From Candidatus Woesearchaeota archaeon (GTDB lineage Archaea > Nanobdellota > Nanobdellia > Woesearchaeales > UBA10216), in the NCBI GenBank assembly GCA_016188155.1, contig JACPIH010000003.1, positions 2,033 through 66,032 on the forward strand: a stretch of DNA of 64,000 bases, read 5' to 3'. Positions 4,957 through 55,372 of the stretch are shown piece by piece. How positions within the stretch are numbered: the stretch's first letter is position 1; every line of letters starts with the position of its first letter. The notes below the pieces were generated by a model. That model saw nothing but the letters and a program-made list of their open reading frames with translations. It ran no database searches and was not told where the DNA came from. The translations under genes and the position numbers were made by a program.

Positions 4957-4960
4957 TTTC

Positions 4961-4993
4961 GTTTTTTGGTTGAGCTTTTTATTAAAAAGGTCA
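4961..4993 (+). repeat. Hairpin repeat family, copy 1 (GTTTTTTGGTTGAGC-CTTTTT-atta-AAAAAG-GTCA)
   Basis: The first 20 nt are identical to copy 2 at 15503. It exactly fills the gap between the sufC stop and the ferredoxin start. The TCA at its right end (4991..4993) is the sufC stop codon. Confidence 0.8.
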
Positions 4994-15472: not shown

Positions 15473-15502
15473 TTTTTGCTCAGTTTTCCGTTTGACCTCC
15501 TC

Positions 15503-15586
15503 GTTTTTTGGTTGAGCTTTTTCGCAAAAACCCAAGTCGTGTCTTACACGACTGGGCCCATTCGCTGCAGGCGAATTGGGGGTCAC
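15503..15586 (+). repeat. Hairpin repeat family, copy 2, carrying the nested double-hairpin module
   Basis: GTTTTTTGGTTGAGCTTTTTCGCAAAAA, then the module, then GGTCAC. The TCA at 15583..15585 is the tfs stop codon. Confidence 0.8.
15531..15580 (+). repeat. 50-nt double-hairpin module, copy A
   Basis: CCCAAGTCGTG-tctta-CACGACTGGG followed by CCCATTCGC-tgcag-GCGAATTGGG. Confidence 0.8.
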
Positions 15587-15909
15587 CCGTACTCCCTCCA
15601 CTTGTGCTTGCAGATGGTGCACTGGTGAAACTTGGTTTCGCCTTCGTCTCCTGCCCTTGTTTGCCTTGTCCAGTAGTATGCCTTGCTGTTGTGGCATTTC
15701 GGGCACTCAGCATCAGTCACTGGCGCGTTGACCTTCTCCTCTGCCGCAGCTTCAAAGCGCCTTTCCTCGTGCTTTGGCTTTTGCTTTATTTTTTCGGTTA
15801 TCTTTGCAGAATCAGTATCGCTGCTTGAATAGCCGCAGCTGCACTTGAGCTGGGCTTTTCCCTCAACGTTTTTCGGCACAAGTATTGAGCCGCAGTCCGG
15901 GCAGAACAT
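15583..15909 (-). CDS. tfs: Transcription factor S (TFIIS / RpoM-like)
   Basis: N-terminal Zn ribbon MFCPDCGS...CSCG. C-terminal ribbon CPKCHNSKAYYWTRQTRAGDEGETKFHQCTICKHKW. Confidence 0.8.
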   Translation of the reverse strand: MFCPDCGSILVPKNVEGKAQLKCSCGYSSSDTDSAKITEKIKQKPKHEERRFEAAAEEKVNAPVTDAECPKCHNSKAYYWTRQTRAGDEGETKFHQCTICKHKWREYG

Positions 15910-15911
15910 TC

Positions 15912-16505
15912 TTATCCCCTTATGGCTTTTATGATGTCTGTGAAAATTATCTTTACGTAGCCGACGTATGGCACCCTGAGCCACCCTTTGCCCAGTATCC
16001 TGTCCTGGCTTATTTCCCTTTCCTCATCGCGCTGGCCTGCGTTCCTGTCGCCCTTTGTCGCAAAGTAGTATTTGCCTTCGGATTCCCACTTGCTTACCGC
16101 TCTGTGTATTATCGGCTCAGGGCTTCCTGCCCTGAAGACAACGACATCACCAATGCTTATGTCTTCCGGCTTCTTTCCTTTGAGGATTATTATGTCTCCC
16201 TTGTTAAATCCGGTGCTCATCCTGAAATTCATAAAATCCTCTTTTGTTATGTTATGCTTTTCGTAAAAGGGTTTCATGCTTTCCCACCACGCATCAAACT
16301 CTGCCTGGTGCTGCATGCTGTCGCTTATTACCGCTACAACAGGGTAGTTTGTCTGGAGTATCAGCCCAAGCCCTGGGTAGACTAAGAATTTGATTATGGC
16401 AAAGGCAAGCGCCGCATTAATGAGCCAGCTCCATATGCTGTTGTCGTTCCACAGGAACTTCCATACTCTTTTGGTAACATTCTTTACCGTCTTCGTAGCT
16501 GCCAT
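15912..16505 (-). CDS. Signal peptidase I, archaeal/Sec11 type (S26B)
   Basis: N-terminal TM, VISDSMQH (catalytic Ser), GDIIILKG, GDVVVF, IIHRAV, TKGDRN. Start set at MAATKTV. Confidence 0.75.
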   Translation of the reverse strand: MAATKTVKNVTKRVWKFLWNDNSIWSWLINAALAFAIIKFLVYPGLGLILQTNYPVVAVISDSMQHQAEFDAWWESMKPFYEKHNITKEDFMNFRMSTGFNKGDIIILKGKKPEDISIGDVVVFRAGSPEPIIHRAVSKWESEGKYYFATKGDRNAGQRDEEREISQDRILGKGWLRVPYVGYVKIIFTDIIKAIRG

Positions 16506-16512
16506 TTTTATC

Positions 16513-16597
16513 GTTTCTTGATTGACCCCCAAGTCGAGGCAAGCTCGACTGGGCCCAGTCGGCGCAAGCCGACTTGGGTTCTTAGCAAGAAGGTCAC
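16513..16597 (+). repeat. Hairpin repeat family, copy 3 (TTTCTTG variant), carrying the nested double-hairpin module
   Basis: GTTTCTTGATTGACC, then the module, then TTCTT-agc-AAGAA-GGTCAC. Confidence 0.75.
16528..16578 (+). repeat. 51-nt double-hairpin module, copy B
   Basis: CCCAAGTCGAG-gcaa-GCTCGACTGGG followed by CCCAGTCGGC-gcaa-GCCGACTTGGG. Confidence 0.8.
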
Positions 16598-23869: not shown

Positions 23870-23943
23870 AGTGGGAACGGCCGGATTTGAACCGGCGACT
23901 CCACCGGCTTCAGCGGTGTGCTCTCCCAGGCTGAGCTACGTTC
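23870..23943 (-). tRNA. tRNA-Phe (GAA), no encoded CCA
   Basis: Minus strand GGGAACG-TA-GCTC-AGCCTGGGA-GAGC-A-CACCG-CTGAAGC-CGGTG-GAGTC-GCCGG-TTCAAAT-CCGGC-CGTTCCC-A folds as a canonical cloverleaf. Confidence 0.9.
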
Positions 23944-23970
23944 CCGATTAAGCAACTTGGCATTTTGAGC

Positions 23971-23994: not shown

Positions 23995-24030
23995 GCGTTT
24001 TTTGATAAACCTTTTTCGCCAAAAAGGTTT
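23995..24030 (+). repeat. Hairpin repeat family, copy 4 (no nested module)
   Basis: GTTTTTTGATAAACC-TTTTT-cgcc-AAAAA-GGTTTTG. Near-identical to the flanks of the purL copy. Confidence 0.8.
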
Positions 24031-24514: not shown

Positions 24515-24555
24515 GTTTTTGGTCAAGCTTTTTGGCCGCTGCCAAAAAGGTTGAG
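24515..24555 (+). repeat. Hairpin repeat family, copy 5
   Basis: GTTTTTGGTCAAGC-TTTTTGGC-cgct-GCCAAAAA-GGTTGAG. It abuts the 3' end of tRNA-Leu. Confidence 0.75.
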
Positions 24556-24669
24556 TGCGGGGAAAGGGATTCGAACCCTTGAAGACACTAAGTCAGCAGA
24601 TCTTGAGTCTGGGCGCAGCTGTCATCGCGGCAACTGAACTGCCCCGTTTGACCACTTCGGTATCCCCGC
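24556..24669 (-). tRNA. tRNA-Leu (CAA) with an approximately 30-nt intron at a non-canonical position in the 5' strand of the anticodon stem
   Basis: GCGGGGA-TA-CCG-AAGTGGTCAAA-CGG-G-GCAG[TTCAGTTGCCGCGATGACAGCTGCGCCCAG]A-CTCAAGA-TCTGC-long variable arm-AAGGG-TTCGAAT-CCCTT-TCCCCGC-A. The anticodon stem forms only after removal of the bracketed segment. Confidence 0.75.
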
Positions 24670-34514: not shown

Positions 34515-37502
34515 CTAGTACCTTAGTGTTTTCTGCCACGCTTCCTTTAATTCCTTGATATCCGCATCAATTATTTTCCCTGCGCTTCCGCGGATTACAA
34601 GATGCTTTCCTTTCGTCTTACCAATCATACCATAATGGCAGCCATGCTTTTTCATGGTGCCTTCGAACATTGCCTCCTTCCCTTTCTCTACTTCAGCAAT
34701 AAACCTCGTTTGCGATTCCGAAAAAAGTACAATTTCACCTCCGTTTTTTGATAAACCCCAAGTCGACTGCTGTCGACTGGACCCAGTCGAACTTTGTTCG
34801 ACTTGGGCTTTTTCGTAAAAAGGTTTTGTGTGGGGAACGTTCCGCAGCTCGACCTCAGCCCCGATTCCGCCTGCAAAGCACATCTCGGTCAGTGCAACGG
34901 CCATGCCTCCTTCGCTTATGTCGTGGCATGCGAGGACAATTTTTTCCTTTATCGCTTCTTCGACAGCAGCGAATGTCGCTTTGCTTTTCGCAGCATCAAT
35001 CGTTGGCACATTGCCCGATTCTAACCCTAAACCAACTAATTCACTGTAGTGGCTGCCTCCCATCTCGTCTTTTGTTTCGCCTATCGCGTAAATGCTGCTT
35101 CCTTCTTTTTTTATGTCCATCGTTACTATGTCGTCTACGTCGTCAATAACGGCAACGGCCGAAATTAGCAGCGTATCAAGTATCGGTATCTTCTTTCCAT
35201 CGCTGACAACCTCGTTGTGCAGGCTGTCCTTCCCTGATATGAAGGGCGTTCCGTAGGCTGTTGCAAAGTCTTTGCACGCCTTGGCAGCCATGACAAGCGT
35301 GCCAAGCCTTTCGGGCTCGTCAGTGTTTGCCCAGCAGAAGTTGTCAAGTATTGCTGTTTTGCCCAGGCTTCCTCCTGTTGCCACAATGTTCCTCAGCGCC
35401 TCGTCTATTGCGGCAGCCGCCATCCAGTACGGGCTTATTATTCCGTAGCGTGGGTTTATTCCGTTGGCAACAGCTAGCCCTTTTCTGCTTCCGAAGACTG
35501 GCATTACAACTGATGCGTCGCTTGGTCTGTCATTGGCAGCTCCGGTAAGGGGCTTTATTATCGTGTTTGCCTGCACTTCATGGTCATATTGCCTTATGAC
35601 CAATTCCTTGCTCGCTATTGATGGCATTCCTAATAGTTTCATTAAGGTTTCATCGTAGTTACTGCCGCTAAGCTTCCTCCGTTGCAGCTGCTTCTGTTGT
35701 GTTTTCGCTTTTTTCTCCCTGTAAACCGCTTTTCTTTTTTGTTTTGGCAGACCATTGTGCAGAAAGTCCATGCTGAGTTCAGCAGCAGTTTTTCCGTTGT
35801 GCTTCACTACAAGCTTTTTTGTTGCCGTGAAGCTTCCAATGACAGCAATCCCTGCCCCTTCCTTTTCGCAAATCTCTTTGAGCTTTTGCAGGTTTTTCTC
35901 AGGCACGGAAACAACCATCCTTTCCTGCGATTCTGAGAGCCATATCTCCCACGGCTTCATTCCGGAGTGCTTCAAAGGGACTTGTGACAGCTCAACCTCT
36001 GCGCCCAGTTCGCGACCCATCTCGCCAACTGCCGAGCTGAACCCTCCTGCCCCGCAGTCTGTAATGGCGTTGAACAGCTTCCTGTCTCTTGCTTCGAGTA
36101 TTGTGTCAAGCATTTTTTTCTCTTCGATGGCGTTTCCTATCTGGACAACTGATGTGGTGAGGCCTTCGTTAAGCTCTGTGCTGGAGAATGTTGCTCCGTG
36201 CAGCCCGTCCTTGCCTGTTTTTCCTCCAACAACAACGATAAGGTCTCCTGGTTTGGGGCTTTTCTTGATAGCCCATCTCGGCATTATTCCTGCTGTTCCG
36301 CAGTATACGAGCGGTGCAAGGTAGCTGTTGTGGAATGTTATTGAGCCGTTTATCGTTGGTATGCCCATCCTGTTGCCGTAGTCGCGAACGCCAGAAACCA
36401 CGCCCTTAAGCGTCCGTTTTGGGTGCAGCACGCCTTTCGGCAGCTTTTCATTGTAGTCTGGGTTTGCAAAGCAGAAGACGTCTGTGCTGAATATTGGCTT
36501 TGCGCCCAATCCTGCACCGAGCACATCCCTGATTACGCCTCCGATGCCTGTGCCCGCTCCCCCATAAGGGTCAAGGGCAGACGGGTGGTTGTGAGTTTCG
36601 ACCTTGAATGCGATGCAGTTTTCTTCATCGAATTTTATTATGCCGGCATTGTCCCTGAAAACAGAGATTAAGTTGTCTTTCCACTCCTTCCTTTTCGCAA
36701 TTTCGTTTGTTGCGGCAACTATGGTTTCCCTGAAGAGGTTGCTGATTGTTTCTGTTGTTTTTTTCCCGCCGCCATCATAAAGTTCAAGCCCGATTTCACT
36801 GTTGAATGTTTTGTGCTTGCAGTGCTCGCTCCACGTCTGCGCTATTGTTTCAAGCTCTGCGTCTGTTGGTTCCCTTCGCAGCTTTTTGAAGTGCGTCTGT
36901 ATCGCCTTCATCTCTTCAAGCGATAGGGAAAGAACGTTTTTTTGGCTTATTTTCCTGAGCTCGGCATCTGACGCTTTCCTTATTTTTACTGCGGCAACTG
37001 GCTCACCGTTTTCCGCGGCTGCTGCCGTTTCTCGCTTTAGGAAAGAGCTTACGTTCACGTGCTCAAAGCCGTAGCCGTATTGCTGCGTGTTCTCGTTTGC
37101 AAGCAGCCCTTCGCAAATGGCCTTTACCTGTTCCTCTGTGGCGTTTCTTATGGCGTATTTCTGCATTATTGTTGCCGACTCTGCAGCTAACCCGATATCC
37201 TCGACAAGCTTTAGGGTGCTCTGCTCAACAGGGTCTGTTATTTGCGGCTTATACCTTACTATGGCCACCCACGCGCCTTTGGAATAAAGCTGGTTGTTTA
37301 TGCCAAACTGCTGGACTACCTGGTCGCTCATTGCCCTGGCTATCGTTTCTGCTTCCTTGGTGCTGTAGCTTCCCTGAATAACATAGATGTCGCTTGTCTC
37401 AGCTACTTCAGCTTTCAGGCCCAGGTCTTCATTTATTGCCTTCTGGAGCCCTTCCTTTCTTACGTCCTTGGATGTTTCTTTCGTCTTTATCTCAATCCAC
37501 AT
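34515..37502 (-). CDS. purL: FGAM synthase PurL fused to N-terminal PurS-like domains; contains an in-frame repeat-derived insertion near the C-terminus
   Basis: ETHNHPSA, DCGAGG, SESQERM, LFSESQTRF. See the finding at 34739..34831. Confidence 0.9.
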   Translation of the reverse strand: MWIEIKTKETSKDVRKEGLQKAINEDLGLKAEVAETSDIYVIQGSYSTKEAETIARAMSDQVVQQFGINNQLYSKGAWVAIVRYKPQITDPVEQSTLKLVEDIGLAAESATIMQKYAIRNATEEQVKAICEGLLANENTQQYGYGFEHVNVSSFLKRETAAAAENGEPVAAVKIRKASDAELRKISQKNVLSLSLEEMKAIQTHFKKLRREPTDAELETIAQTWSEHCKHKTFNSEIGLELYDGGGKKTTETISNLFRETIVAATNEIAKRKEWKDNLISVFRDNAGIIKFDEENCIAFKVETHNHPSALDPYGGAGTGIGGVIRDVLGAGLGAKPIFSTDVFCFANPDYNEKLPKGVLHPKRTLKGVVSGVRDYGNRMGIPTINGSITFHNSYLAPLVYCGTAGIMPRWAIKKSPKPGDLIVVVGGKTGKDGLHGATFSSTELNEGLTTSVVQIGNAIEEKKMLDTILEARDRKLFNAITDCGAGGFSSAVGEMGRELGAEVELSQVPLKHSGMKPWEIWLSESQERMVVSVPEKNLQKLKEICEKEGAGIAVIGSFTATKKLVVKHNGKTAAELSMDFLHNGLPKQKRKAVYREKKAKTQQKQLQRRKLSGSNYDETLMKLLGMPSIASKELVIRQYDHEVQANTIIKPLTGAANDRPSDASVVMPVFGSRKGLAVANGINPRYGIISPYWMAAAAIDEALRNIVATGGSLGKTAILDNFCWANTDEPERLGTLVMAAKACKDFATAYGTPFISGKDSLHNEVVSDGKKIPILDTLLISAVAVIDDVDDIVTMDIKKEGSSIYAIGETKDEMGGSHYSELVGLGLESGNVPTIDAAKSKATFAAVEEAIKEKIVLACHDISEGGMAVALTEMCFAGGIGAEVELRNVPHTKPFYEKAQVEQSSTGSSRQQSTWGLSKNGGEIVLFSESQTRFIAEVEKGKEAMFEGTMKKHGCHYGMIGKTKGKHLVIRGSAGKIIDADIKELKEAWQKTLRY
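34743..34828 (+). repeat. Hairpin repeat family, copy 6, with the nested double-hairpin module, located inside the purL coding sequence
   Basis: GTTTTTTGATAAACC, then the module, then CTTTTT-cgt-AAAAAG-GTTTTG. Flanks match copy 4. Confidence 0.85.
34758..34807 (+). repeat. 50-nt double-hairpin module, copy C
   Basis: CCAAGTCGAC-tgct-GTCGACTGG, a, CCCAGTCGAAC-tttg-TTCGACTTGGG. Confidence 0.85.
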
Positions 37503-46385: not shown

Positions 46386-47624
46386 TTAGTGCCTGAATAC
46401 CCTTTGCCCGGTGAATACCATGGCCATGCCGTGCTCGTTGCAGGCCTCAATTACTTCATAATCCCTGATTGAGCCGCCGGGCTGGATTATGGCCGTAACC
46501 CCAGCTTTTGCAGCAACATCTGCTGTGTCCCTGAATGGCAAGAAGCCGTCTGAGGCGAGGACTGACCCCTTGAGGCCGGCGTTAGTGGCTGATACCTCCT
46601 TCCAAATAACATCCATTCTTTCTTTGTCCTTTACCTGCCACAATGGGAGCTCGTATTTTTCAAAGCTTACCCTATCGGCTGCCTTTTTGTAAGCTTTTGA
46701 AATTGCCAATTCAGTTGCCCCCACCCTGTCCTGCTCTCCTGCCCCAATAGCGATTGTTATCTTGTCCTTGGCGAAGACCATAGAGTTTGAGATCACTCCT
46801 TGGCAGACTTTCCAGGCAAATATCATGTCCTCAATTTCCGCAGTGGTGGCCTTCCTTTTCACTTTGTACTGCTTTCCTTGGTGCTCTGCTTCTGCCGCGC
46901 CAAGTTCGGGCGCCTTTATCTCATTGTCAGCGGATTGCTGGAGTATTATTCCGCCGTCGAGCAGCGCTTTGAATTCTATAAATCTCTTTTTCCTGTACTC
47001 CTGAAGGGTCGCAAGCTTCTTTATGGTGATGAGTCTCATATTCTTTTTGGATGTAAGGATTTCCATGGCTGCTTTATTAAATTCAGGAGCAGCCACAACC
47101 TCAACGTAATTTTTGACAATCTCTTCCGCTGTTGCCTTGTCAAGCTTCCCGTTCACTACCACAACTCCGCCGAATGCAGCTAGTCTGTCCGTAATATTAG
47201 CAGCAATATATGCGTCTGAAATATTATTCCTGCTCGCAACCCCTGATGGGTTGTTGTGCTTCATTATCACCGCAGTGGGCTCGTCGAAATATTTGAGGAT
47301 GTTCAGCGCCGCATCAACATCGGTAAGGTTGCTTTTTCCCAGGCTTTTGCCCGTCTCCACAAGCTCTTTTTCGGTAAGGTTGCTTATCATCGCATCCTTT
47401 GGAGAAATTTTGCACCCTGCAATGTCCCAGTTTCCCTCGGCGAGCTCGTAGAGTGCTGCTTCCTGCCCCGGATTGTCGCCGTACCTCAGCCCGATTTTTT
47501 TGCCTTCAACACTCCATTGCTTTTTTTTGTATTTCAGTTTGGAATTTCCAAGGATTATTACCATTTCATTCGGGAAGCTGTCGCCGGCTGCTTCCTTGTA
47601 GATGCTCTTATTCGGTTTAGCCAT
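46386..47624 (-). CDS. purH: AICAR transformylase domain protein (C-terminal half of a split PurH)
   Basis: LRYGDNPGQ, KHNNPSG, GAGEQDRV, IIQPGGSIRD. Confidence 0.85.
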   Translation of the reverse strand: MAKPNKSIYKEAAGDSFPNEMVIILGNSKLKYKKKQWSVEGKKIGLRYGDNPGQEAALYELAEGNWDIAGCKISPKDAMISNLTEKELVETGKSLGKSNLTDVDAALNILKYFDEPTAVIMKHNNPSGVASRNNISDAYIAANITDRLAAFGGVVVVNGKLDKATAEEIVKNYVEVVAAPEFNKAAMEILTSKKNMRLITIKKLATLQEYRKKRFIEFKALLDGGIILQQSADNEIKAPELGAAEAEHQGKQYKVKRKATTAEIEDMIFAWKVCQGVISNSMVFAKDKITIAIGAGEQDRVGATELAISKAYKKAADRVSFEKYELPLWQVKDKERMDVIWKEVSATNAGLKGSVLASDGFLPFRDTADVAAKAGVTAIIQPGGSIRDYEVIEACNEHGMAMVFTGQRVFRH

Positions 47625-47625
47625 T

Positions 47626-48276
47626 TTAATCAGCCTTGTATTCTTTTTTCACAGAGGCTGTAGTCAGCCTATTGTAATAACCGCTGATGTTGCCTATGTA
47701 AGCGCTCAGGTAATCCATTGCCGTCTTCGCGAGCTGCAGCCTTATATCAATGCCGCACCAGCCTCCATTTTTCCTCATTATTTCAAGCAGCTTCTCATAG
47801 TCAACAGGGCTAACAACAACAGCAACTCTAAGAAAGTTTTTGGCAGCTGCCTCTATAAGACTCACGCCGCCAATGTCAATGTTCGTTCTTGCCTTCTCCA
47901 TGTTTCCCACCTCTGCCGCACCTGCAAAAGGGTATAAATTCACAACAACAAGGTCAAACGCAACAGCATTGTTTTCTTCAAGGTATTTTCGTTGCTGTTC
48001 GTCATCCAAATCAGCCAAAATCCCCGCATGTATTTTCGGGTGAAGTGTTTTTACAAGCCCGGCAGGCATTTCCTTTGTGCTTGTGTATTCTGAGATTTCC
48101 AGCAAGTTAGCAGCTGCTATGGCTTTTTTCAATTCGTTGAATGTGCCGCTGCTGCAGTAAATCCTGACATTGGGGTTTATTTTCGCCAGCTCAGCAGCGA
48201 AATACTTCAGCCCCGTCTTGTCGTGGCAGCTTATTAGTACGTTGTTTATCCTTACAGCATCTTTTGCAGTTGTCAT
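47626..48276 (-). CDS. purH: IMP cyclohydrolase / MGS-like domain protein (N-terminal half of a split PurH)
   Basis: LISCHDKTGL, SSGT, VKTLHPKIHAGIL, DLVVVNLYPF, NIDIGG. Confidence 0.8.
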   Translation of the reverse strand: MTTAKDAVRINNVLISCHDKTGLKYFAAELAKINPNVRIYCSSGTFNELKKAIAAANLLEISEYTSTKEMPAGLVKTLHPKIHAGILADLDDEQQRKYLEENNAVAFDLVVVNLYPFAGAAEVGNMEKARTNIDIGGVSLIEAAAKNFLRVAVVVSPVDYEKLLEIMRKNGGWCGIDIRLQLAKTAMDYLSAYIGNISGYYNRLTTASVKKEYKAD

Positions 48277-52795: not shown

Positions 52796-53443
52796 CTACT
52801 GCTCAAACCCCATCTTCCTGCCCCACTCGGCAGGATTTTTGCTCCACTCTTTCAGCATTGCCACTTCTTCTTTTTTAATGTAGCCTTTCTTTGCAGCCAC
52901 TTTGACAAGGGTGCTGAAGTTGCTTAGCGTTAGCAGCTGGCAGCTGGCATCGGCAAACCCTTTCTTCGCTATCTCCATTTCGTAAGTGAATATTGCGAGG
53001 CATTTCTCAACAACCGCCCCTTCCTTTCTGGCAGATGCAACTGACGCCAAAGAAGTTCCCCCAGTGCTGACCAGATCCTCAATAACCAGAACTTTTTGCC
53101 CCGGCTCAAGCCCGCCCTCAATCAGGTTCTCCCTTCCATGGTCCTTCTGCCCTGTTCTTATGTAAATCATTGGCTTCTTCAGCTTCTCAGCAACAAGAGC
53201 GGCCCAAGGTATGCTGGCCGTTGCTATCCCGGCAATAACATCTGCCTCAATCATCTCTTTTTTGATTTTTTTGACGTAGAAATCGCGAATCATCTTTCTT
53301 TCTGCAGGCTTTGACAGAAGCAGCCTGTTGTCACAATAAATAGGGCTCAAAATGCCAGACGCAAACTTGAAAGGCTGCTGTGGCCTGAGGATTATTGCGC
53401 CTGCCTTCAGCAGCAGCTCTGCGACTTTTGTTTCAGTTCCCAT
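52796..53443 (-). CDS. pyrE: Orotate phosphoribosyltransferase
   Basis: FKFASGILSPIYCDNR, VLVIEDLVSTGGT. Confidence 0.9.
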   Translation of the reverse strand: MGTETKVAELLLKAGAIILRPQQPFKFASGILSPIYCDNRLLLSKPAERKMIRDFYVKKIKKEMIEADVIAGIATASIPWAALVAEKLKKPMIYIRTGQKDHGRENLIEGGLEPGQKVLVIEDLVSTGGTSLASVASARKEGAVVEKCLAIFTYEMEIAKKGFADASCQLLTLSNFSTLVKVAAKKGYIKKEEVAMLKEWSKNPAEWGRKMGFEQ

Positions 53444-54761
53444 TAAACATTACCTCTTTGCCCCTGATTTTTTCTTCAGCTATTTCACCATCGCTGCAAA
53501 TAACATTGCCATTGACAATCGTTGCAGCCACTATTCCTTTGACTTTCCACCCGTCAAAGGGCGTCCAGCCGCACTTGCTTAGCATATCGTCGTTTTTTAT
53601 TGTTTTCTCTTTGTGCATGTCAACCAGCGTAATGTCAGCGTCCATCCCAACAGCCAATTTCCCCTTTCCTTTTATCCCGAACACAGCAGCAGGATTCTCC
53701 GAAGTCAGCCTTATCAGCTGCTGCAGCGACACTCTTCCTTTGTTCACAGCATCAAGCATTAGCGGTAGCATTGTCTGAAGTCCAGGCACCCCGGAGGGGG
53801 CATTCCAGTAGCCCTGTTCCTTCTCCTCCCGTAAATGTGGCGCGTGGTCTGTGGCAATCATGTCAACAACCCCTTCATTTATTGCCTTCCACAATGCGGC
53901 AACGTCTTCTTTAAGCCTCAGCGGAGGGTTTACCTTAACATAATTTCCTAATTTAGTAGCTGTTTCTGAATCGGCAGTCAAAAACAGATGGTGCGGAGCG
54001 ACTTCACAGCTAAGCAGCTTATAGTCCTTCTTCGCAGCAGCAACAATGGCCGTCTCCTCTTTTGTGCTCATGTGGCAGATATGCAGCCTTGTGCCATGTT
54101 TTCTGCCAATCGCTATTGCCCTCTCAACCTCTTTTGCAGCTGCAGAGTTTTCCCTTATCTTAAGGTGCAGCTTTGCTCCATCGCTGTCGCCGCGATATTT
54201 CTCTTCATTTGCCTTTATCATTGCCTCGTTTTCGGCGTGCGCCATTAGCCTCTTGCCACTGCCGAAAATATCGTTTAGCGCTTTCTCATCAGTAACCAGT
54301 AGATTTCCTGTTGAAGAGCCCATGTAAACCTTCACGGCAGCAATGTTTAGCACTTTTTTAATCTCTTCCAAATTGTCCGCTGTTGCCCCGAAGTGGAATC
54401 CGTAATTAACAATGCACTTCGCAGCAGCAAGTTTCCTTTTCTCCTCCAGCAGCGCAACAGTTGTCGTTGCCGGCTTCGTGTTGGGCATGTCAAATATTGT
54501 TGTTACCCCTCCGGCAACAGCCGCCTTGCTCGCCGTCAGGAAGTCCTCCTTCTGGGTCATTCCCGGCTCGCGGCAGTGCACATGAACATCAATCGCTCCA
54601 GGCAGAGCATGTTTTCCGGTGGCATCAATAACTTCATCTGCAGCAGATTTCAGTTCAGAAGCAACACCTATTTTCGTAATTTTTCCGTTGCCTCCAACGA
54701 GAATGCTTCTCTCTAGGAACTCGCCATTAACCAGCACTTTGCAGTTTTTTATGAGGAGCAT
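53433..54761 (-). CDS. pyrC: Dihydroorotase
   Basis: PGAIDVHVHCREPG, FDMPNT, HAE, ATDHAPH. Confidence 0.9.
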   Translation of the reverse strand: MLLIKNCKVLVNGEFLERSILVGGNGKITKIGVASELKSAADEVIDATGKHALPGAIDVHVHCREPGMTQKEDFLTASKAAVAGGVTTIFDMPNTKPATTTVALLEEKRKLAAAKCIVNYGFHFGATADNLEEIKKVLNIAAVKVYMGSSTGNLLVTDEKALNDIFGSGKRLMAHAENEAMIKANEEKYRGDSDGAKLHLKIRENSAAAKEVERAIAIGRKHGTRLHICHMSTKEETAIVAAAKKDYKLLSCEVAPHHLFLTADSETATKLGNYVKVNPPLRLKEDVAALWKAINEGVVDMIATDHAPHLREEKEQGYWNAPSGVPGLQTMLPLMLDAVNKGRVSLQQLIRLTSENPAAVFGIKGKGKLAVGMDADITLVDMHKEKTIKNDDMLSKCGWTPFDGWKVKGIVAATIVNGNVICSDGEIAEEKIRGKEVMFNGN

Positions 54762-54876
54762 TAAAATAGACTGGAGCCTCTGGAGTATTTATAAGTGTTT
54801 TTGTTGCCTGAAAGCCTTCCGGAACTGTCCGGTGGTTCTTGCGGTTCCACCCGAAAACTTTTCAAAACGTTAGTGG

Positions 54877-54918
54877 ATTTCTTGGTAAAGCTTCTTTGCT
54901 TGCCAAAGAAGGTTTCAC
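54877..54918 (+). repeat. Hairpin repeat family, copy 7 (TTTCTTG variant)
   Basis: GATTTCTTGGTAAAG-CTTCTTTG-cttg-CCAAAGAAG-GTTTCAC. Confidence 0.65.
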
Positions 54919-54995
54919 TGGACACTGGACACCTGCCCGGCTATGGTATATAAGCAACTTGTTACAAAGACATCTGCCGGAAAGCAGAAAGGCTT

Positions 54996-55035
54996 ATATA
55001 TGACTTAATACGTCATATATGTCATGGCAGGTCAT
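54996..55035 (+). promoter_or_regulatory. Operator-like palindrome ATATATGAC-n7-GTCATATAT followed by GTCAT repeats at about 10-bp spacing, upstream of the TA-like pair
   Basis: Read directly: 54996..55004 and 55012..55020 are inverted repeats. GTCAT occurs at 55012, 55021 and 55031. The ATG is at 55040. Confidence 0.5.
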
Positions 55036-55039
55036 TTGA

Positions 55040-55372
55040 ATGAAACTTATTTTCGAAAGCGACAAGCGATTGTCGGAGGATTCTCGCTTGATAAAGCGAC
55101 TTTATCGTGCAGAGTCAGGCGAATACCAATCAGGAAGTTTCATTTTTGCTCTGCAATACCTTTGGTTTCATGAAGACAAATGGCTTGAATTGGCACGGAT
55201 TGATAACTATGAACATGAGAAAGGAAGAACTGGAGTGCACATACATAAGTTCGGCATGCGTTTTGTCGAATTCAGGGAAATGGACTTTACAGAGGCTGAG
55301 CAACTCGTAATAGCTATTGGAGAAAAAATAAAGCAAAAAATCAGGCTTGGTGATCACGATGGTAAAAATTGA
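55040..55372 (+). CDS. DUF6516 / TumE-like putative toxin
   Basis: 110 aa; ...WLELARIDNYEHEKGRTGVHIHKFG... pattern recalled for the family. Overlaps the downstream HTH gene. Confidence 0.45.
   Translation: MKLIFESDKRLSEDSRLIKRLYRAESGEYQSGSFIFALQYLWFHEDKWLELARIDNYEHEKGRTGVHIHKFGMRFVEFREMDFTEAEQLVIAIGEKIKQKIRLGDHDGKN

Follow-up and report, generated by a model that had tools for sequence, protein, structure and literature searches.

A double-hairpin DNA palindrome in spacers, protein genes and tRNA introns of Woesearchaeota, a probable non-autonomous mobile element

Introduction

Small palindromes inside protein genes have already been documented for Rickettsia (PMC10969869) and for some mitochondria. 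The Rickettsia palindromic elements (RPEs) are repeats of approximately 100-150 bp that lie in frame in open reading frames (ORFs), with one conserved peptide per family (PMC10969869). The double-hairpin elements (DHEs) of Allomyces (Paquin, Laforest & Lang 2000), as summarized in PMC2800124, consist of two adjacent hairpins, differ in presence or absence between close relatives and have no flanking duplication. The GC clusters of yeast mitochondrial DNA (mtDNA) are hairpin modules that merge and shuffle, with duplication of an AG target (PMC4478555). We describe here a short repeat of two abutting hairpins, hereafter the module, which occurs three times in a 64,000-nt stretch of DNA from a Candidatus Woesearchaeota archaeon (GCA_016188155.1, contig JACPIH010000003.1, positions 2,033 to 66,032; the whole stretch is called the window), together with a second repeat, the host repeat, in which the module can be nested.

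Two bacterial or prokaryotic systems also bear on this repeat. Repetitive extragenic palindromes (REPs), including the bacterial interspersed mosaic elements (BIMEs) and the paired form called REPIN, are inverted hairpin pairs of high copy number that are non-autonomous and go with an HUH enzyme, the REP-associated tyrosine transposase (RAYT, or TnpA-REP) (PMC2817692, PMC3116915, PMC3733652). REPs are tagged at one end by GTAG or CGTC (PMC3733652). They are expected to share their genome with a RAYT gene, which REPs usually flank. Characterized IS200/IS605 elements have subterminal hairpins and, 5' of each hairpin foot, a guide tetranucleotide that recognizes the cleavage site by base pairing; for archaea, reports are limited to IS200-type TnpA and include no RAYTs (PMC6006769). 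The three copies were first noticed by a reading of the window sequence alone (the original prediction), and the analysis below follows up on that reading.

Results

Copy A of the module was found at 15531..15580 (50 nt), copy B at 16528..16578 (51 nt) and copy C at 34757..34807 (51 nt), each recorded without a strand. All three had been predicted, but copy C begins at 34757 and not at 34758 as first given. A covariance model built from relatives found exactly 3 copies in the window (62-73 bits; 62.5 for copy A, 72.9 for the nearly strand-symmetric copy B and 70.8 for copy C), and the next match scored no more than 8.6 bits. Copy A lies 2 nt past the TGA stop of a TFS/RpoM-like gene (15583-15984, minus strand). 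Copy B lies in the 5' leader of a Sec11-type signal peptidase gene, between a TATA-like box, TTTTTATTTG, and the ATG at 16505. Copy C lies in frame within a PurS-PurL (FGAM synthase II) fusion ORF (34515..37502, minus strand, 995 aa; Pfam AIRS, AIRS_C and FGAR-AT linker), which also holds a host repeat and in which the copy reads ...AQVEQSSTGSSRQQSTWG....

The module is a dyad of two abutting GC-rich hairpins, and both strands read alike. The unit measures 48 or 51 nt and its hairpins 23-26 nt. Each hairpin has a CCCA/TGGG foot, one extrahelical base, a conserved RTCG/CGAY stem and a variable, self-complementary tip; copies start with CCCA(A)RTCG and end with CGAYT(T)GGG. Hairpin 1 of copy A is CCCAAGTCG-TG-TCTTA-CA-CGACTGGG and its hairpin 2 is a compensated T-variant, CCCATTCGC-TGCAG-GCGAATTGGG; copy B has GCAA twice, as had been stated. 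The double hairpin is an obligatory unit: all 247 of 247 first-type hairpins ran directly into a second hairpin, a result on which the single hairpin was rejected as the mobile unit, and no solo hairpin marking the end of a longer parent element was found among them. Expanded copies of 93-141 nt contain an additional double hairpin nested within hairpin 2. Those inspected by eye (e.g., L057 and L100; L numbers denote sampled loci, which are approximately 8-kb pieces around copies) had the same architecture with bulges at the same positions. Nested hairpins of the L057 type share a common core, CAAGTC...GACTG followed by CAGTC...GACTTG, and those of the L012/L107 type have no bulge.

When folded as single-stranded DNA, copies A, B and C each formed two adjacent hairpins on either strand, with minimum free energies of -16.7 to -19.4 kcal/mol and z scores of -5.7 to -7.0 (-6.3/-7.0 for copy A); none of 200 shuffles was as stable. 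We then aligned 26 distinct 51-nt copies. At the double-hairpin pairs, 97.4% of cells were paired, and changes on both sides were present in 8 pairs (54 cells). The covariation score was 0.286 compared to 0.095 ± 0.011 for shuffles, was reached by 0 of 500 shuffles and collapsed once partners were slid by 1-3 columns. The pair at arm position 6:22 changed from G-C to A-T in 9 copies and pair 31:46 from G-C to A-T or T-A in 5, and even the CCC/GGG foot covaried in rarer variants (CACA...TGTG and CCCC...GTGGG). Inner stems formed 1.95 of a possible 2.17 bp within copies, compared to 0.92 ± 0.06 when halves came from different copies. Among 171 hairpins there were 112 distinct tip sequences, almost maximally self-complementary, and numerous tips turned up again in other combinations at other loci. 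The compensatory stem changes claimed from three copies are, thus, supported by both the covariation score and the inner-stem test. The one-base asymmetry noted in each hairpin was also real: without exception in 26 of 26 aligned relatives, hairpin 1 had a bulged A in its 5' arm and hairpin 2 a bulged T in its 3' arm. Only 4 of 546 cells were G:U pairs. This near-absence, along with the equal folding of both strands, indicates Watson-Crick pairing on both strands, as for a palindrome at the DNA level.

An alternative cruciform or long-hairpin fold had also been proposed, on the grounds that the 5' arm of hairpin 1 is the exact complement of the 3' arm of hairpin 2. That complementarity holds for copies B and C but not for copy A, in which hairpin 2 is compensated (CCCATTCG/CGAATTGGG). 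The fold itself is contradicted by the covariation data: long-range pairing (arms 1 and 4, arms 2 and 3) had 0 compensatory changes, and 6:46 was broken in 10 of 26 copies. Rfam at the gathering threshold returned only tRNA-Phe in the window and no match to the module.

We searched 596 Gb of Genome Taxonomy Database (GTDB) genomes with the pattern CCCAAGTCG-N6-12-CGACTGG-N-CCCA and obtained matches in 89 genome stretches, approximately 81 from Candidatus Woesearchaeota metagenome-assembled genomes (MAGs) and approximately 8 from bacteria. The latter number is the chance expectation for 20 specified bases in 596 Gb, and the covariance model found no copy in 6 of these bacterial chance loci. Carrier MAGs include NC_groundwater_725, 292, 268, 437 and 270, nzgw63 and UBA10216, as well as some bins labelled Methanosarcinales. 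In 612 kb of sampled loci, the covariance model gave 222 strand-matches, or approximately 115 copies, from at least 8 Woesearchaeota genomes. The module was also present in another 49 metagenome contigs, several with groundwater or sediment labels, including Hainich aquifer samples and one contig labelled 'sediment metagenome'; no copy was found in the viral contigs scanned. The original prediction of a genuine repeat family was borne out by this search of related genomes and by the model. Where it had allowed that neither further copies nor supported covariation might turn up, the outcome was approximately 115 copies and a score that no shuffle in 500 reached.

Two observations concern the genome bins themselves. 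Loci L001, L003, L015, L030, L047, L061 and L066, from MAGs named 'uncultured Methanosarcinales archaeon' (CAZBFZ01 and CAYUOQ01), carry the same module and host repeat, and CAZBFZ01 contigs are syntenic with Woesearchaeota loci; the Methanosarcinales label of these MAGs looks wrong. L043 and L078 are two contigs of one MAG, JACPIJ01 (NC_groundwater_437), both syntenic with the window at 13-19 kb and differing from each other in sequence and module content, and the bin probably mixes two related populations.

Orthologous sites with and without the module were identified from flank-joined BLAST searches and pairwise alignment. A glycosyltransferase gene was filled in L010 and empty in L089 (junction ..TT^TTCTG); a second site was filled in L088 and empty in L026 and L040 (junction GGAA^AATTT), and a third was filled in L081 and empty in L112 (junction CAAAA^AATC; flank identity 92.6%). 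Further filled and empty pairs were L022 with L030 and L030 with L073, and a 96-nt expanded copy in L131 had been inserted as a single unit relative to L084. The inserted block was exactly CCC...GGG at each of these sites, in an A or T run without duplication. The sites of copies A and B were filled in the window and L043; they were empty in L027 and L078, which have neither host repeat nor module there and in which the ATG at site B is approximately 25 nt from the TATA-like box. The PurL site held a module in the window and L031 and lacked one in L058. The window is itself the empty allele for insertions in the genes of a CCA-adding enzyme (L025) and a PAP2 protein (L078). Among 59 asymmetric copies (A-type hairpin first), the 5' flank was AAA, GAA or AAG in 44 and TTT in 4. 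This bias indicates that insertion is oriented, 3' of an A-rich RAR motif, although the motif is degenerate, unlike targets of the TTAC type.

The L043 ortholog of site B (L043:4141-4398) has an insert of approximately 250 nt with a variant module, whose foot is CACAGTCG...CGACTTGTG, and further hairpins. This long multi-hairpin insert indicates that the leader has gathered nested insertions.

Copy C is one of at least 9 in-frame copies inside Pfam-confirmed genes. In L058, PurL has no insert and reads ..IPHTSSITDEIALFSESQ..; at that point, PurL of the window and of L031 has 25 additional codons (75 nt) of host repeat plus module, and the total is 75 nt in both despite modules of 51 and 48 nt. 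Against the solved Thermus thermophilus PurL (3VIU), 35 window residues stood opposite a 3-residue turn between two aligned blocks. Insertions of the module only, also in frame, were found in a GT4 glycosyltransferase (in an inter-domain linker), the CCA-adding enzyme and the aspartyl-tRNA synthetase AspRS. Additional in-frame copies were present in the D-aminoacyl-tRNA deacylase DtdA (a 93-nt copy), an NTP-transferase, an SNase and a PAP2 protein, and an MBL-fold hydrolase had one at the same site in both L072 and L133. The original prediction had overlooked both the position of copy C and its host repeat in frame within PurL and the tolerance of the family for reading frames. Coding copies use all three reading frames, which means that no single peptide is selected. 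Selection of the insert at the peptide level was, therefore, rejected, and compensated DNA changes also alter the peptide (L072 compared to L133).

Lengths divisible by three (3n) were found in 58 of 82 canonical copies (71%), compared to 32.6 ± 4.2 (40%) when hairpin lengths were randomly re-paired; 0 of 20,000 shuffles reached the observed 58 (p<5e-5). An independent metagenome set gave 18 of 26 compared to 12.2 expected (p=0.015), and 9 of 11 expanded copies also had 3n length. Combinations of copy and frame were stop-free in 89.7% of cases, compared to 60.3 ± 1.7% in composition-matched shuffles; stop codons occurred in tips only, and the conserved arms are stop-free in all six frames. The copies in these length and stop tests are related, so their independence is overstated. 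The 3n length and stop-free arms mean that insertions into ORFs would become short loop peptides and not knock-outs.

Six orthologous filled pairs with flank identities of 73-81% differed at only 5 of 204 arm positions, and 4 of the 5 differences made up two compensated pairs. In the same pairs, tips differed yet stayed complementary, even in the MBL and PurL genes, where the peptide was altered. Copy A and its L043 ortholog differed by one loop base, with flanks 88% identical. Passive decay of inserted copies is a poor fit to nearly unchanged arms beside flanks diverged by 19-27%. The arm conservation points either to selection acting on the structure of the DNA or to a common pool of hairpins from which copies are continually replaced or converted.

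The host repeat is a second repeat family of approximately 35-40 nt, with 83 strict matches, 32 of them with a module. It comprises a 10-bp A/T-rich hairpin and a tail, ATC(A/C)AAAAACG, and its outer stem covaries (TGACC/GGTCA, AAACC/GGTTT and TAACC/GGTTA). The window has 7 copies in its 64 kb, all on the gene strand, and the repeat frequently separates a stop codon, supplied by the TGA in TGACC, from the ATG that follows. Around copy A, the main part is at 15502..15530 (minus strand; TTTTTGCGAAAAAG-CTCAACCAAAAAACG), with the outer-stem half GTGACC at 15581-15586, across the module. Around copy B, the tail is at 16512..16527 (minus strand; GGTCAATCAAGAAACG) and the hairpin at 16579..16597 (minus strand; GTGACCTTCTTGCTAAGAA), such that the module sits between AAGAA and GGTC. 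The host repeat of copy C is read as part of PurL, with its tail at 34742..34756 (minus strand; GTTTATCAAAAAACG; ..LSKN..) and its hairpin at 34808..34825 (minus strand; AACCTTTTTACGAAAAAG; ..PFYEK..). The four module-free repeats, all on the minus strand, are at 4960..4993 (TGACCTTTTTAATAAAAAGCTCAACCAAAAAACG; 4 nt upstream of an ATG), 23996..24030 (upstream of tRNA-Phe, 23871-23945), 24515..24554 (directly 3' of an intron-containing tRNA-Leu, 24555-24669) and 54878..54915 (a TTCTTT variant). The last of these closely resembles the host part of the L052 tRNA-Glu intron, which holds a module.

Within host repeats, the module most commonly abuts GGTC (20 copies), lies 3-4 nt inside the A run in 16 and is on the other arm in 9. 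Copy A sits 3' of a plus-strand A run and copies B and C 3' of a minus-strand A run, and it is the presence of an A run on each strand of the host repeat that places the module at different points of it. The difference in insertion point between copy A and copies B and C had been described correctly. So had the independent movement of the module, in that orthologous host repeats exist with and without it (L023 compared to L098 and L136 compared to L098). The host repeat after the TFS gene has the module on opposite arms in the window and L114. In the tRNA-Gly(GCC) intron, a host-like repeat stands alone in L088, and the module is at GAAA^AAAG in L040 and GGAA^AACG in L026. Identical modules at different loci were found in two cases (L006/L088 and L007/L033), each with an identical host repeat, which indicates that the composite can also spread or be converted as a unit.

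The host repeat could itself be a mobile element, or it could serve as terminator or promoter punctuation. The idea that it is the general promoter or terminator of archaea was rejected, since the 64 kb hold only 7 copies and it also occurs inside tRNA introns and PurL. In addition, the site B insertion came between a TATA-like box and an ATG that were already in place.

Module copies lie within the introns of tRNA-Gly (L026), tRNA-Glu (L052) and tRNA-Ser (L067). The tRNA genes of this clade have unusually long anticodon-loop introns (73-110 nt) made up mostly of host repeat, with or without the module; loci with introns are L026:2539-2706, L052:3461-3642, L067:2341-2522, L016:3693-3860, L070:2297-2443 and window 24555-24669. 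The L016 tRNA-Arg intron has two inverted copies of the host repeat, and the L070 tRNA-Cys intron also contains the host repeat. The tRNA-Gly(GCC) gene has no intron in L030 and has one in L026, L040 and L088. The intron of the window tRNA-Leu(CAG) is 32 nt. ARAGORN finds the intron-containing tRNAs only in intron mode (-i), and its default scan misses the window tRNA-Leu(CAG).

A mobilizing enzyme was sought in the window and in the sampled loci. Pfam assigned only housekeeping domains to the 59 window ORFs, with no transposase, integrase, HUH or reverse-transcriptase domain, which agrees with the original statement that no transposase is in the window. For the Y1/HUH gene that the original prediction advised looking for elsewhere in the genome, an IS200 TnpA query had no match among 797 ORFs or, by tblastn, in 0.74 Mb, a weak negative that covers only the approximately 8-kb pieces around copies. 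Clustering of ORFs for multicopy families in the sampled loci returned only orthologs.

The copies are surrounded by archaeal housekeeping genes, namely those for a TFIIS-type Zn-ribbon protein, DUF167, NMD3, the CCA-adding enzyme and SMC, and those of a long purine and pyrimidine biosynthesis cluster. PurH (AICARFT/IMPCHase) is present in the window as two neighboring ORFs at 46386-47624 and 47626-48276 (minus strand), the upstream ORF covering MGS and profile positions 1-62 and the downstream ORF positions 67-311; a split gene or a frameshift would account for this arrangement. A non-coding stretch of approximately 170 nt at 54770-54950 (minus strand) lies between the TATA-like boxes TTATATACC (approximately 54950) and CACTTATAAATAC (approximately 54790), upstream of an amidohydrolase (Amidohydro_1) gene at 53433-54761. 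It starts with GCCGGGCAGGTGTCCAG and contains the module-free host repeat at 54878..54915. Rfam at E<=1 had no match in 54300-55100, and the stretch may represent a small RNA gene or else a long leader.

Discussion

Taken together, these data make it probable that the module is a non-autonomous, structure-defined mobile DNA palindrome of a Woesearchaeota clade that tolerates reading frames. The two bulged hairpins would be the recognition sites of a putative trans-acting enzyme, which would act on DNA in extruded or single-stranded form and cut it precisely at the feet of the hairpins, by a logic akin to that of IS200/IS605 or REP-RAYT without membership in either. Conservation of the arms could result from ongoing turnover or gene conversion among copies, or from use of the structure by the host. 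Copies in coding sequence would be translated and not removed, judging from the frame and stop statistics.

Several points weigh against this interpretation. The search of window ORFs and sampled loci returned no mobilizing enzyme, a weak negative as noted. Nearly every copy is unique in sequence, the two identical pairs at different loci being those that share a host repeat; the data, therefore, do not demonstrate that the module has transposed recently by itself, and presence and absence could partly reflect precise loss. Strong conservation of the arms at old orthologous sites fits a host-useful structure equally well. The ends of the element are the hairpin feet, unlike the characterized substrates of Y1 transposases, which need a spacer and guide tetranucleotide (PMC6006769). 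Finally, translation of the coding copies is something that we infer from sequence.

A more ambitious proposal is that the module is the substrate of a new archaeal hairpin-specific system of DNA transposition or recombination that uses neither IS200 TnpA nor RAYT. Under this proposal, the element would be frame-neutral (3n length and stop-free in six frames), would colonize gene-dense DPANN genomes inside proteins, tRNA introns and repeats, and would continually exchange its tips; or else the host would have put the conserved bulged hairpins to a use of its own, as DNA. We regard this as tentative and rather unlikely.

Other explanations were considered. A functional structured RNA module, such as a protein-binding, stabilizing or processing signal kept by selection on the RNA fold and spread by duplication, would account for the strong covariation, for arms far better conserved than the flanking and mostly coding DNA, with compensated changes even in MBL and PurL, and for the many copies in short intergenic spacers and 5' leaders beside start codons. 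However, a G:U count of 4 in 546 cells and equal folding of both strands are atypical of RNA structures, the contexts (enzyme ORFs, tRNA introns, leaders and gene ends) are unrelated and have no common gene neighborhood, and close relatives differ in whether a copy is present. A pure RNA signal would give no reason for 3n length or for freedom from stop codons, and Rfam had no match either at the gathering threshold in the window or at E<=1 in 54300-55100; we consider this explanation improbable. Less probable still is spread through an RNA intermediate by transcription, reverse transcription and integration, as proposed for the Allomyces mitochondrial DHEs on the grounds that they, too, have no target duplications. 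The analogy with those elements, as summarized in PMC2800124, is in its favor, as are the lack of target-site duplication and the many copies within transcribed regions, but Pfam identified no reverse transcriptase among the 59 window ORFs, and strand symmetry and pairing that is Watson-Crick only point to recognition at the DNA level.

For Thermoproteales, the idea that tRNA introns can transpose is an established one. An intron-like element that is removed from RNA, either a bulge-helix-bulge (BHB) intron cut by the archaeal splicing endonuclease or a self-excising RNA, could likewise explain exact insertion without target duplication and the copies within the introns of tRNA-Gly, tRNA-Glu and tRNA-Ser (L026, L052 and L067). 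The module, however, ends in fully paired CCC/GGG feet with no 3-nt bulge, 4-bp helix and 3-nt bulge at its boundaries, and in tRNAs it makes up only part of a longer intron, which is found in L088 with no module. In addition, the 3n bias, stop-free frames and constant 75-nt gain in two PurL orthologs would be expected only if the insert were translated. We consider removal from RNA very unlikely, and a BHB or mobile intron was rejected on the paired feet, the module-free intron and the length and stop statistics. Least likely of all is an immobile array of four half-sites (CCCARTCG in alternating orientation) for a dimeric regulator or nucleoid protein that binds double-stranded DNA, with the hairpins irrelevant. 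Perfect dyad symmetry and four copies of one 8-9-nt motif are what such an array would look like, but the variable spacers are always self-complementary, and the variable arm position covaries with its partner in the hairpin (6:22), not with its counterpart on the other side of the dyad (6:46), when binding to double-stranded DNA predicts neither. In-frame copies in enzyme genes and copies in tRNA introns are also implausible as operators, and empty and filled orthologous sites exist.

If the module is a mobile palindrome, as we consider probable, it has some general consequences. Woesearchaeota genomes are small and gene-dense with little intergenic space, and an element whose length and sequence make it harmless in any reading frame illustrates how selfish DNA can persist there. 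Such DNA can add loop segments to core enzymes, namely PurL, AspRS and the CCA-adding enzyme. From the invariance of the extrahelical bases, the exact ends and the oriented choice of target, a specific enzyme that recognizes hairpins is predicted; finding it could add a new chemistry of single-strand DNA transposition or extend the HUH family in archaea. For annotation, both the insertions and the nested host repeat are potential sources of error in gene calling, tRNA detection (through long introns) and ortholog alignment in DPANN MAGs.

The closest mechanistic models are REP/BIME-RAYT and IS200/IS605. Like REPs, the module has hairpins of 20-40 nt paired in inverted orientation, is present in high copy number and would be non-autonomous; REPs are thought to be handled as single-stranded DNA hairpins by one trans-acting HUH enzyme per genome, as is conceivable here, and they combine into mosaics with further short repeats, much as the module combines with the host repeat. 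In contrast, REPs are extragenic and bacterial, and the module lies inside ORFs and is archaeal. Neither the GTAG nor the CGTC tag was found at the module ends in any copy, the module hairpins abut without a spacer, and the long hairpin that REPINs form between two units is contradicted by the covariation of the module, with 0 compensatory changes. The resemblance to REP or palindrome-associated transposable element (PATE) repeats or to IS200/IS605 ends that had been proposed is, thus, upheld, but membership is not, as the module has no GTAG/CGTC tag, is not extragenic and has no spacer or guide.

With the ends of IS200/IS605 elements and with MITE-like elements derived from them, haloarchaeal PATEs for instance, the module shares hairpins of approximately 20-25 nt (PMC6006769) at both ends (23-26 nt in the module), oriented insertion 3' of a short motif with no target duplication, and an imperfect stem with an unpaired base. 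The two ends of characterized elements are not mirror images, however, and the module is a dyad; at empty sites, it ends at the hairpin feet with no spacer or guide, and its RAR target is much less specific than targets of the TTAC type. Pfam on the 59 window ORFs and the TnpA query in 0.74 Mb yielded neither TnpA nor TnpB. An unpaired base is also present in the hairpins of IS608. A classical miniature inverted-repeat transposable element was rejected, for the outer arms are inverted repeats but the clean empty and filled pairs had no target-site duplication.

The in-frame PurL copy and the tolerance for reading frames shift the closest analogues to the Rickettsia RPEs and the mitochondrial double-hairpin elements. 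The architecture of DHEs, with two adjacent hairpins, mobility seen as presence and absence, and no duplication, is that of the module; the likeness is one of architecture only, and the host genomes are unrelated. DHEs and GC clusters also resemble it in having mostly intergenic and intronic copies with occasional coding ones, and substitutions concentrated in the loops. DHEs, like the related GC clusters and repetitive hairpin elements of yeast and sponge mtDNA, differ from it in belonging to organelle genomes of eukaryotes, and to our knowledge single-base bulges, a 3n bias and stop-free arms are not described features of DHEs. RPEs and the module are both short palindromes scattered through a small genome that lie in frame in many unrelated housekeeping ORFs and add a peptide segment; both also have non-coding copies, and no transposase is known for either. 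The module differs from RPEs in its length of 48-51 nt, its archaeal (Woesearchaeota) host, its dyad of two bulged hairpins and its hypervariable tips, and further in using all three frames with no conserved peptide and in having a defined target with an orientation bias. We found no archaeal counterpart of palindromic repeats residing in ORFs described in the searchable full-text literature. The module is, then, within the broad known class of small palindromic mobile repeats, and its colonization of genes and introns sets it apart from a plain intergenic repeat.

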